DNA from: Octopus vulgaris
Taxonomy: Eukaryota
Length of the DNA: 64,000 nucleotides
Direction of reading: 5' to 3'
Assembly (NCBI GenBank): GCA_951406725.2
Contig: OX597830.1
Location: forward strand, 72,106,001-72,170,000
Part shown: in pieces, positions 47,906-63,202 of the stretch
Layout of the letters: the number at the start of each line of letters is the position of its first letter
How positions within the stretch are numbered: the first letter of the stretch is position 1
Notes under the pieces: model-generated
What the model was told of the DNA's origin: nothing
The model's input: only the letters and a program-made list of their open reading frames with translations
Databases searched by the model: none
Made by a program: the position numbers and the translations under genes

Positions 47906-47936
<31 letters not shown>

Positions 47937-49000
47937 GGGACAAGAACGTGAAACATTTAGAAGACGATACAAAAACACGGACGAGACATTCGAAGCCTTC
48001 AATCTTCAGTTAAGAACCGGATCCTCTTCGCAATTTCGGCTGATTAATCTTGATATATATATATATGAAATTTTGAATTTAGTTCACTGATATGCCAGTA
48101 CTACCTTTGCGGATAACCAGGGGTCTGCGGAACCTAGACTGGGAACCACTGGTTTATACTTTGAAGACAGGGAGCTGCTTGAATCGTTAGCATACCGGGC
48201 AAAATACTAAGCGTCATTATATTCGTTTTTACGTTCAAATTCTGCCGAGGTCGACTTTGCTTGTCATCCTTTCGGGGTCAATAAAATAAGTAACATTTAA
48301 GCACTGGTGTCTTGAACTTTCTGGCCACGTTCCAAAGTTTGAAACCCTTGTTTATAATTTTATTGAAGTTGGTTACCTTGGTGAAAATACTTAGCGACAT
48401 TTCTTCTGGTTTTATGTTCTGAGTTCAAATGCCACCATCTATGCCTTTCCTCCTTCCGTGTCCTGGAAAGAAGTACCAGTCAAGCACTGGGCGGGGGCTA
48501 TGTTATTGACTTATCCCTCGTGACAAAATTTGAAATCATGACATAACTCTATATATACGTTTCCAGATACGAGTTCGTATTTCAAAAATTATGGATTTAT
48601 CATACAAGACGATCTGGCAAAATCATTAGAACGTCGGGCGAAATGCTTAGCCGTATTTCGTCTGCCGTTACGTTCTGAGTTCAAATTCCGCCGAGATCGA
48701 CTTTGCCTTTCCTCTTTTCGGGGTCGATTAAATTGAGTACTAGTTACGCACTGGGGTCGATGTAATCGACTTAATCCGTTTGTCTGTCCTTATTTGTCCC
48801 CTCTGTGTTTAGCCCCTTGTGGGTAGTAAAGAAATAGGTATTTCCTCTGTCTTTAAGTTCTGAGTTCAAATTCCGCCGAGATTGACTTTCCATTTTATCC
48901 TTTCGGGGTCGATAACTTAAGTACCAGTTGCGTACTTGCGATCGATCTAATCGACTGGACCCCTCCCTCAAAATTTTGAGCCTTATGCCTTGAGTAGAAA
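46745..49000. mobile_element. SINE B cluster: minus copies 46745-46865 and 47105-47505; plus copies about 47690, 48170, 48380 and dimer 48614-49000
   Basis: Repeated TTCAAATTCCGCCGAGGTCGACTTTGC motif in both orientations. Confidence 0.88.
47937..48053 (-). mobile_element. Family X element, second copy
   Basis: Minus strand TCAAGA-TTAATCAGCC-GAAA-TTGC-14nt-TCTTAA-CTGAAGA; flanked by (TA)n. Confidence 0.78.
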
Positions 49001-56165: not shown

Positions 56166-56594
56166 GATGAGTCCTCTAATGCCATGTGGTCTCCCATGTC
56201 TCCTGCACCGAGTTCCAGCGTAACGTCTGTAGTACTATCAATACCAATGTCCACTGGTAGATTCTCAATGACAAGGGCTGAAACGTCTTCTTGGCATTAT
56301 AATAATATTGTCAGGTTTCAGATGCAAGGAACGCCTGACCTTGGTATGCCATGACCTTCGTGACTGTATAGCGGTACCTACTGGTTTTGAGAACGGTTTT
56401 GTTGAATGGCCTCTTTCTGTAATAAGTTAAACCTATGTGCATTTAAAATATTTTGTTTTTGTATTTTGGCAGGGAATATTTTTTATATTATTTTTGTTTC
56501 TTCCTTTGTTCACAAATCTCCGGTTTACTTTATACATACACTTTCTTACATACGTGGACACATGAACATACACATAAACACAAACTTTCTCCAA

Positions 56595-56640
56595 GACACC
56601 TGAAGAAGGCTGGAGGGTATATCAACCGAAACGTTATGTT
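56595..56640 (+). ncRNA. Minimal type I HHR-like motif
   Basis: GACAC-CTGAAGA-A-GGCTG(10 nt)CAACC-GAAA-CG-TT-ATGTT; one A.C mismatch in each of stems I and II. Confidence 0.65.
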
Positions 56641-57145
56641 AACAACAAACAAAATGAGGACAAATATCCCTCGAATGTAAATAATATAAATAATGTAAAT
56701 AATGGAATCTCTCAACTGTTCTGATATATCACGGAAACAGTTACAATCTACGAGCGGGAAACCGATTTCATATTTGCAACTCTACCAGAACGGATGTTCT
56801 TCTAGTTTAGACGCCTGACGATGTGTCTGAGGTGCGCTTGGTTATATATGCTTTCCAAGCACGTTGTTCCGGGATCAGTCACACTATGTGGCACTCAGGT
56901 GGTTGCCTTCTACTATGACCCCAGGCTGACCAGAAACATGTGATTCGATAGACGGAAAATGAAAAAGCCATCGCATATATACATACTTACACAAACGCAC
57001 ATACACACGCGCGCGCACATACTCTCATGCACACACATATATGCATGTATACATATAGGTGTTTGTGTGCATGCGGCTGTGCGTATGCCTGTGTATATTT
57101 ACCTATCTACCCAACTATCCTCTCTCTCTCTCTATCTCTCCCTGT

Positions 57146-57213: not shown

Positions 57214-58293
57214 TATACTAAAACTCAAAGTTTGTCTTTTTTCCTCGCCATTTGATTATGACGATAAACATTACAAATAAAATAATCCTTACCTTTTTAA
57301 GAAAACTAAATAAAGTTGGAAATGTCGACACTTCAAAGAGTCTCGTCAGCTATCGCCGTCCGTCCCTTTTTCTTACTTTCACTTGTCATCCCTTAACCAT
57401 TTATACAACTTTCGGAGTGCCGTGGACTAGAAAGATAGAAATTCTCCCTGTATTTTTATGATATATTTTTGAATCACGGATACTTAATTTTTTGTTTCTT
57501 AAACGAAAAAATTACTATTTTAATCATAATCAAAAGGCAGAAAAATTGACAGAGAGTCTATCGCTTTTTAGATGAAGATCAATTGCAATGAGAGTTGCTA
57601 AATCTCGTATGAATGGGAAAACAAACAACGACAAATGGGTTGTACCTTATACTGAAAATGTTTTAAGAGCATTCAAATGCCACCGCAACGTTGAAATCGT
57701 TTCCCCCTTGAGGACAATTACGTACATCATCAAGTACACACTGAAAGGAAATGACCGAGTGGCTGTTCAAATAAACAATGACAACGAAATGGGTAGGTAT
57801 ATTGGACAATTCGAAGCAATTGCATCCACTTTAGGATTTTCAATTCATGAAAGAGCACCTGCAATAGTAAAACCGCAAGTTCATCTACAAGATGAGCAAA
57901 GAATATTGCTCAGAAGTAATGAGGATATATATGGCTGTCAATGAACGACATGTGAGTACAACATTGACAGAATTAATTTCATTGTCCATCAATGATGACT
58001 TGGCAAACACATTACTTTAAGCTGAAGTACCCATGTATTTCATTTGAAACAATAGTTAACAAAGAATGGCAAAGAAGAAAGCGAGGGGAAAAGGTTGAAG
58101 GCCATTTGAACGTCTTCAAAGAAGAAACACTTGGTCGTGTTTATATTGTGACACCAAAAGCAGGAGAACTATATTATTTAAAAAGTTATTACATCAAGTT
58201 CGAAATAGTTTTTTTTTTTCCTTTCCCGCTGGGCATGGACATTTTCAACTTGGAGTGGTTCTGACACAACGGGTCACGACAGGTACATCAAGT
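57210..58293 (+). mobile_element. Internally deleted Helitron with RepHel fragment (57588-58200)
   Basis: KWVVPY...FKCHRNVE...IKYTLKGNDR...RYIGQFEA...FSIHERAP...VHL; WQRRKRG...LGRVYIVTP..GELYYL; ends are approximate. Confidence 0.88.
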
Positions 58294-62800: not shown

Positions 62801-62845
<45 letters not shown>

Positions 62846-62850
<5 letters not shown>

Positions 62851-63202
62851 CAAAGGTAAAAAATCAACAAACGGAAATCGTCAGAACATAACAAGCAGGA
62901 AACGGACGATAGCGCAACAACGGCAAACATGGACAATACAAGATACATGGATCATTCGCAGCCAATTGCTTCCTCAGTCGGAGTCTGGAATGTCCACGTA
63001 GTTTCGCCCAATCCTCTCCCATACTACTCGAAACCAGTTGGACCAAGGGCTTAAGCTGAGGGAATTAAGCCCTTGAGCAAGGCAAATGAATGCAGATATA
63101 CGTGTATCCTGTTTTGTCGTGTTTGCCTTTGTTGTGTTATCGCCCTTTTCCTCCATTTTATGTTTTGACGAATTCCCCTGTTGTTCTTTACCGTTGATTT
63201 AT
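62846..63202 (-). mobile_element. Family Y fold-back element (arms about 62846-62949 / 63101-63202) enclosing permuted HHR-like motif 62949-63027
   Basis: Inverted arms visible; inner hairpin CAAGGGCTTAA/TTAAGCCCTTG; core spacing identical to family X. Confidence 0.75.

Follow-up and report, generated by a model that had tools for sequence, protein, structure and literature searches.

A hammerhead-type motif with non-circular strand order and a predicted four-way junction in Penelope-like repeats of Octopus vulgaris

The 64,000-nucleotide stretch of the Octopus vulgaris genome analysed here (contig OX597830.1, positions 72,106,001 to 72,170,000; hereafter the window) carries on its minus strand a complete hammerhead core in non-circular order, located in the tail repeat of a Penelope-like element. 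The core is predicted to belong to a self-cleaving fold in which one strand of stem II is supplied from upstream and a four-way junction is formed, a reading to which we assign a probability of roughly three in four. An earlier note on the same DNA had recognised a non-circularly permuted, hammerhead-like motif with the strand order C-B-A, and this recognition holds, the order being S-G-C in terms of blocks. The note's suggestion that such an order might be undescribed does not, as Eckert et al. (2023, PMC10085705) have already described it under the name type SGC, so that the block order alone is not new. The host repeat, which is Penelope-like and probably derived from Naiads, was absent from that first account.

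The window copy and its parts

Read 5' to 3' on the minus strand, the motif would consist of a strand of helix e, hairpin f, a stem II strand, helix b, III-UH, the cut, stem I, a linker, II'-GAAA-III, b', I'-CUGANGA and e'. The corresponding features, together with the related copies in the window, are the following:

62841..63101, minus strand: family Y copy, 5'-truncated; 3' pseudo-LTR of a Penelope-like element, with its 3' end in (TA)n
63076..63092, minus strand: 5' strand of helix e, whose partner is the strand right after A9; paired in 139/150 family-Y cells
63080-63076, minus strand: junction-proximal part of the same strand, TTGCT
63044..63075, minus strand: hairpin f, with an 11-bp stem, abutting helix e and stem II without linker
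63038..63043, minus strand: 5' strand of stem II, supplied from upstream; G10.1 is 63043
63034..63037, minus strand: 5' strand of helix b, CTGG; paired in 104/120 family-Y cells
63022..63027, minus strand: 5' strand of stem III and H17 (GUA triplet), reading GTAGT-A
63016..63021, minus strand: 5' strand of stem I, TGGGAG; the G at 63020 is a copy-specific mismatch
63006..63011, minus strand: 3' strand of stem II, ending in C11.1, separated from stem I by a 4-nt linker
63005-62998, minus strand: GAAA (G12-A15.1) and 3' strand of stem III, GAAACTAC
62985..62988, minus strand: 3' strand of helix b, CCAG; pairing conserved in family Y
62983-62978, minus strand: 3' strand of stem I, CTCCGA
62977-62971, minus strand: CUGANGA core, C3-A9, CTGAGGA
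62953..62970, minus strand: 3' strand of helix e, directly after A9; the earlier note's stem II strand
63098..63202, plus strand: copy of a Y-type 3' tail in inverted orientation, adjoining the 5' end of the Y copy; 81% identity over 108 nt to the tail of natural copy L004
38604..38713, plus strand: family X copy beginning ~10 nt past the predicted cut, with (TA)n flanks
47936..48056, minus strand: family X copy beginning at the predicted cut site, with (TA)n flanks

Re-reading of the sequence recovered every core segment that had been placed between minus-strand positions 63027 and 62953, and the window copy possesses the full core (CUGANGA, GAAA, UH and the pairs A15.1-U16.1 and G10.1-C11.1). 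Stem III (GTAGT/ACTAC) pairs perfectly. Stem I (TGGGAG/CTCCGA) contains, as described at the outset, a single mismatch; this G·G at pair 2 is specific to the window copy, the position being a C in 28/30 family-Y copies, which yields TCGGAG/CTCCGA. A second defect is the U·G at stem II pair 2. Since the window copy is old and carries the G·G in stem I, it may be weak or dead. Its identity to the natural copy L004 is 89% over 262 nt (BLAST), with its true 5' end near 63097. The predicted cut lies between 63022 and 63021 of the minus strand; a cut 3' of 63022, as had been anticipated, agrees with the fold and with a pile-up of 5' ends that families X and Z show at the homologous position. The extent originally proposed, 62949..63036, was right for the core but not for the outer limit: with a stem II strand supplied from upstream (63043-63038), and with helix e, the motif reaches ~63092.

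Standard searches pass over the motif. Among the 150 Rfam matches listed of 433 in the window there was no hammerhead, only microsatellite-driven matches of miRNA type, and in 15 related loci Rfam gave no gathering-score match, in line with the expectation that type I-III descriptors would miss it. The minimum-energy fold of the window copy is not distinctive (z -1.57), nested folding being unable to show stems I and II. Two further readings, an HDV-like reading of the GAATG segment and a type I reading (CUGANGA, a small hairpin, GAAU), were dropped by eye, as no downstream stem I/III partner was seen and the segment pairs in helix e. In family Y (locus L003), several short hairpins with GAAA tetraloops, possibly protein-binding sites, occur ~250-120 nt upstream of the GAAA segment.

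Pairing and covariation across octopus families

Pairing was evaluated in 28 natural copies representing subfamilies by a swap test, in which each strand was scored with the same search against its own partner region and against that of every other representative. Own pairing exceeded cross pairing in stem I (4.80 vs 3.17), stem III (4.23 vs 2.74) and the upstream stem II (4.38 vs 3.34), with p≤5e-5 in each case, as well as in helices b (p=0.009) and e (p=0.02), p-values that overstate independence because the representatives are related. The covariation that the earlier note had proposed as a check on its stems was thus found for stems I and III, which covary across subfamilies, and not for its stem II.

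That stem II was CAATT/GATTG, formed with the strand following CUGANGA, and if it were correct the motif would be a plain type-SGC hammerhead. Several observations speak for such a pairing: it can form in 138/150 family-Y cells (the upstream pairing in 164/180), the published SGC descriptors (PMC10085705) tolerate one inserted base after A9, and the metagenomic locus L424 was first classed as SGC by the script. Nevertheless, a stem II drawn from the strand after CUGANGA has no own-over-cross advantage (1.27 vs 1.42, p=0.80, 28 representatives; 1.11 vs 0.87, p=0.06, in the exact register of the earlier note), and outside family Y that strand does not pair with the one preceding GAAA. It is already occupied by helix e, and in the window copy CAATT/GATTG amounts to -2.2 kcal/mol vs -5.8 kcal/mol for the upstream stem II. 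L424 was moved to the class with an upstream stem II because 6/6 pairs form there and its junction is gapless. The chance that the plain SGC reading is correct is therefore regarded as next to negligible.

The upstream stem II is found with different sequences in different subfamilies (GGCTG/CAGCC, GGCCGG/CCGGCC, GGACA/TGTCC, GAAGG/CCTTC and GACACC/GGTGTC, with GTCCAA/TTGGGC in the window). In 18 hand-placed representatives, up to four pair types occur per column, and G10.1-C11.1 is present in 17/18 and U16.1-A15.1 in 18/18; subfamily L092 carries a compensatory one-base insertion in both strands of stem III. Four family-Y copies, L002, L004, L007 and L029, combine the complete core with stems free of mismatches; intact copies of other families are L069:1820-1975 (X) and L285 (Z), and compact examples among the metagenomic loci are L423:3814-3913 and L426:2838-2940. 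Core bases and the G10.1-C11.1 pair are kept across lineages that are ~65% identical or less.

The strand after A9 pairs far upstream to form helix e (predicted at -11.7 kcal/mol in the window copy), with hairpin f occupying the interval from helix e to stem II. All junction gaps are zero in the window copy and in families Y, Z and W, and in family X they measure up to 2 nt, at two arms. Helix b, which pairs the strand after stem II with the strand before stem I, is the counterpart of the stem I/II "interaction" helix of type SGC. The short linker between stems I and II foreseen in the earlier note is likewise present, measuring 4 nt in the window and 2-5 nt in 7/8 metagenomic loci. Automatic placement mis-set helices e and f in X10, N1 and N2 and helix b in several representatives, rows that were kept in the counts. 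Minimum-energy folds recover hairpin f (plus helix e in family X), pseudoknotted stems being outside what they can represent. As judged from these pairings, the fold is predicted to hold a four-way junction inside a catalytic block that had been assumed unbreakable.

It has to be weighed at this point whether the parts assemble in trans, with strands contributed by different tandem units or by the members of a dimer and not all by a single 140-nt stretch. Minimal hammerheads of Penelope-like elements cleave as dimers, and tandem units of 589-872 nt are common in the octopus repeats (17/20 measured pairs). A dimer mechanism is also known for the newt and ASBVd motifs (PMC6155905). All partner strands lie, however, within ~100-160 nt, junction gaps are 0-2 nt and 4-6 ordinary pairs make up stem III, so that this arrangement appears very unlikely and a fold within a single stretch is preferred.

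Host repeats and their relation to Naiads

The octopus genome, of 2.8 Gb and rich in microsatellites, carries the motif in several lineages: X, which comprises many subfamilies, and Y, Z, W and N. Family Y gave 270 candidates genome-wide, with 40 matches listed, and family X gave 1,598, its copies being young (91-97% identical). A G-then-C pattern had 7,770 matches in the genome and its reversed version 2, and for another pattern the count was 3,983 against 136 in its control, an excess that argues that the motif is not due to chance. Families X and Y, which the earlier note had linked, have the same motif layout, and the GCAAT-H segment that it expected directly upstream of TCAAGA in family X was found, copies other than those of the window reading GCAAT-C-TCAAGA; both X copies of the window are 5'-truncated and hence devoid of it.

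According to Craig et al. (2021, PMC8557442), Penelope-like elements are recognised by partial tandems with pseudo-LTRs, adjacent inverted 5'-truncated copies and microsatellite targets, and all three are seen here. Among 30 family-Y copies 24 end in a microsatellite, (TA)n or other. The 17 of 20 measured partial tandems with units of the length given above have a longest stop-free frame of 188 codons (X and Z units); one Y tandem was seen. An inverted truncated copy is frequent at the 5' end, as at window positions 63098-63202.

The more specific affiliation is with Naiads. A motif taken from the 3' end of a published Octopus Naiad gave 517 matches vs 2 in the control and corresponds to family N, in which broken RT frames lie upstream on the same strand at three loci (L404, L416 and L419). 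Full-length relatives of this RT measure ~920 aa and carry an N-terminal GIY-YIG domain ahead of a C-terminal RT, which is the Naiad layout and is also that of the metagenomic loci described below; (TA)n targeting, partial tandems and adjacent inverted copies are further points of likeness. Unlike Naiads, families X, Y, Z and W showed no RT attached in the units examined. Because the motif, its position and the targets are held in common, a Naiad origin can be inferred for these four families, which probably represent non-autonomous derivatives of Naiads resembling retrozymes. Two divergent RT remnants (L417 and L418) had no motif within 1.6 kb.

It is unlikely, although compatible with the same ribozyme and the same fold, that the mobilisation of X, Y, Z and W depends on a Penelope-like clade other than Naiad, either a young family with a C-terminal endonuclease or Neptune. 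The genome holds at least 150 near-identical copies of an intact 717-codon element, likewise in (TA)n, and the Naiad RTs seen in it were broken remnants only (in a degenerate-query search with the smaller part of its loci inspected), whereas X copies are young. Yet the terminal repeat of the 717-codon family is devoid of the split motif, as the form with an upstream stem II is called here, and this motif sits behind Naiad-type RTs in both the octopus genome and metagenomes; moreover, a degenerate RT query could overlook a young, divergent Naiad. Naiad remains the favoured partner of the four families.

Several other elements were also seen. The 717-codon family (L171-L200; for example L171, minus strand, ORF 781-2931) is very young and often tandem, its frame comprising an RT followed by a C-terminal nuclease-like region, and it has no Pfam match; we take it to resemble the Hydra clade. 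In its repeat a hammerhead resembling type I can be made out by eye, the core being CCGAAGA and stem III almost without a loop. An RT of a Penelope-like element beside L139 was considered as a partner of the motif and rejected, as it belongs to a separate young family in (TA)n whose repeat is without it. At L135, from 1885 onward (plus strand), a Neptune-like RT fragment in opposite orientation adjoins an X tandem. The window itself contains, at 56590-56650 (plus strand), CTGAAGA...CCGAAACGTT, laid out like a canonical type I hammerhead in the manner typical of the tails of Penelope-like elements, a degenerate type I-like motif with CTGACGA and a hairpin stem II at 57325-57355 (minus strand), and an open frame at 57576-57944 (plus strand), by eye resembling a Helitron-type Rep/helicase fragment.

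To look beyond the octopus, an alignment of Naiad RTs was used to select the best 80 of 439 confirmed metagenomic loci, 61 of them with at least 300 nt downstream, which were searched with a descriptor of the core plus stems I, II and III in any order. Calls were made in 12/80 loci, with the split form in 8 and CSG in 4, and two of the CSG loci are 99.9% identical; the other 68/80 gave no call, in a set where 19/80 carry under 300 nt downstream and with a descriptor that needs a 4-pair stem III and would therefore miss minimal type I motifs. Antisense strands, 177 kb of ORF and 20 shuffles gave 0 calls each. Helices e, f and b were not descriptor criteria, and all 8 split loci carry them, the e|f, f|II and A9|e gaps being 0-1 nt in 18/24 cases by one count and 22/24 by another, and never above 2. 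The junction score of these loci was 11.25 for own vs 3.8 for cross combinations (exact p=2.5e-5; shuffled maximum 52 vs 90 observed), and helix b, which is family-specific, had 10.1 own vs 5.2 cross bp. The core pairs A15.1-U16.1 and G10.1-C11.1 occur in 8/8, having been search criteria. The CSG loci (L462, L477, L492 and L493) lie downstream of Naiad-type RTs in metagenomic contigs.

Published Naiad consensus sequences were also surveyed by eye over their last 330-400 nt (53/54 sequences, supplement of PMC8557442). The split layout was recognised in eight, Bfor, 3_Chem, Amil, Aacu, Anas, 2_Movir, Obim and Ovul, two of which are only partly visible while the three corals and the two octopuses are near-identical, and a clean CSG layout in six nematode consensuses (1-3_Nbra, Hcon, Hpol and Asuum). 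The remaining consensuses had neither in the visible 3' part. Bivalve and hemichordate Naiads show another conserved motif at their 3' ends, GGGTGT...CACCTG-like, right after the ORF. In Craig et al. (2021, PMC8557442), Naiads are reported to lack a canonical hammerhead, with some marked "HHR_core" or "HHR_half_core", and 7/14 of the split or CSG consensuses bear one of these flags. Given its place at the tail of Naiads reported without standard hammerheads, the split motif is likely their missing ribozyme. On balance, it seems probable that Naiads across several phyla carry non-circular hammerheads, CSG in some lineages and an undescribed, active split form in ctenophores, cnidarians and cephalopods.

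Genomic 5' ends, mechanism and place among hammerheads

Retrocopies should start at the predicted site if the RNA is cut there, which is the premise of a 5'-end test performed on the first-listed places of one contig (C1). A core-pattern sample of 166 copies (3/169, without a close reference, having been dropped), drawn from all 100 listed places of the G-then-C pattern and some of those of the second pattern, had 43 5' ends in -3..+13 (2,337 nt at risk) vs 27 in -88..-4 (8,883). In a second sample of 97 X copies, gathered by a downstream pattern from 100 listed places, there were 32 ends per 1487 nt at risk in -3..+16 vs 8/3803 in +17..+56 and, upstream of the site, 9/2071 and 11/2336 (together 20/4407), which amounts to 2.2% per base starting at the predicted cut site, compared with 0.2–0.5% to both sides of this interval. 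The window -3..+16 had been picked after the first sample was seen, and for this reason an unsupervised scan and a re-test on new copies were made: the best window was -4..+13, 0/300 simulations reached the observed level, and the excess persisted in the 73 copies absent from the first sample. It also persists once internal deletions and inverted junctions are taken out, and it is seen both in TA/AT sites and in the remaining sites when the two are treated apart, the pile-up window being ~2x as TA/AT-rich. In family Z the excess is seen as well, with 13 ends per 788 nt at risk vs 8/3186. Few ends lie exactly at the site, most being 2-13 nt downstream, and 37/97 X copies extend at least 100 nt upstream of the predicted cut, so that uncut templates must be common. 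Four public runs of assembled contigs covered the motif, with uninformative ends and joints. As a trace left in genomic copies, the pile-up provides indirect support for cleavage in vivo.

The same data could be explained by a fold that is right but does not work as a free ribozyme, being protein-dependent, slow or vestigial, with the pile-up reflecting transcription start in the pseudo-LTR or stalling of the RT at the pseudoknot. Transcription starts inside the pseudo-LTR in Penelope and Chlamys-3 (PMC8557442), and the hammerhead of Poseidon required protein for cleavage, mutants having no effect on insertion in vitro (PMC11167929), where RNA-seq reads, in addition, did not begin at the hammerhead site. 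The 5' ends are spread over ~17 nt rather than set at one base, and the literature searched offers no tested example of a core interrupted between A9 and G10.1. On the other side, the upstream edge of the pile-up coincides with the predicted site in two families of different sequence, and the core is maintained over the divergence of lineages noted above. An inactive, slow or protein-dependent motif is consequently considered unlikely, and a self-cleaving fold is retained as the main reading.

In the mechanism proposed, the ring of SGC and CSG forms would be opened between A9 and G10.1 and clamped there by helix e; the usual stacking of stem II under the G12·A9 core would be retained, and helix e would stack on hairpin f. 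Cleavage after NUH would act on RNA transcribed through the repeat. By analogy with Poseidon (PMC11167929), reverse transcription would begin near the tail; its run to the new 5' end would yield numerous short copies whose starts lie at the site or slightly beyond it. In unit-length RNAs with a cut at each end, helices e, II, b and III would hold the two halves together, which may favour the formation of circles.

The conserved core and the covarying stems I to III are the features of the hammerhead class. [quoted passage not shown] With type SGC (HRIMA-1 and variants) it has in common the block order, the full core, the short linker between stems I and II and the helix joining the far sides of these stems. 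The position of the stem II strand is different: in type SGC (PMC10085705) this strand follows CUGAUGA directly (0-2 nt; descriptors CUGAUGAG or CUGAUGAUG), whereas in the octopus its place is upstream of block S, with A9 continuing into helix e and hairpin f completing the four-way junction. Type CSG has the same cyclic block order and opens between stem III and b', the split form opening between A9 and G10.1. Cleavage has been shown for both published forms by Eckert et al. (2023, PMC10085705); that paper describes SGC from metatranscriptomes only, with none in the genomes of known organisms, and CSG as two metagenomic sequences, while the split motif occurs in thousands of copies in an animal genome. 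Non-LTR retrozymes resemble the octopus units in being non-coding tandems derived from the terminal repeats of Penelope-like elements, with one hammerhead each; these are type I, like the pseudo-LTR hammerheads of canonical Penelope-like elements, and were found by type I descriptors blind to the S-G-C order (bioRxiv 10.64898/2026.07.22.740005). Hammerheads "containing additional helices" are cited in PMC13725137 to Weinberg et al. 2015. The literature search, which covered papers outside subscription, found no non-circular hammerheads in Naiads or animal genomes and no four-way junction at A9/G10.1. The CChMVd hammerhead, which likewise accommodates added material at the core, has an extra nucleotide between A9 and G10.1, a single base at the core where the split motif would place two helices and the RNA termini.

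If the reading is correct, the split motif would add a seventh topology to the natural hammerheads, one that the scheme of six permutations leaves out, and animal genomes would hold in it the first amplified RNA permutation of the non-circular kind. The scheme of six (Eckert et al. 2023, PMC10085705) presumes that no interruption is possible in CUGAnGA and the paired strands next to it, a premise that the split motif would break with the backing of covariation. Non-circular permutations would move from anonymous metatranscriptome contigs to animal genomes, in thousands of copies. The split and CSG forms are a candidate answer to the reported absence of hammerheads in Naiads, once used as an argument that Penelope-like elements need none, and the pile-up may be a genomic hint of a ribozyme acting in these elements' life cycle, a question left by the in vitro work on Poseidon. 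With CSG and the split form in one clade, the evolution of hammerhead permutations would become traceable on the RT tree.
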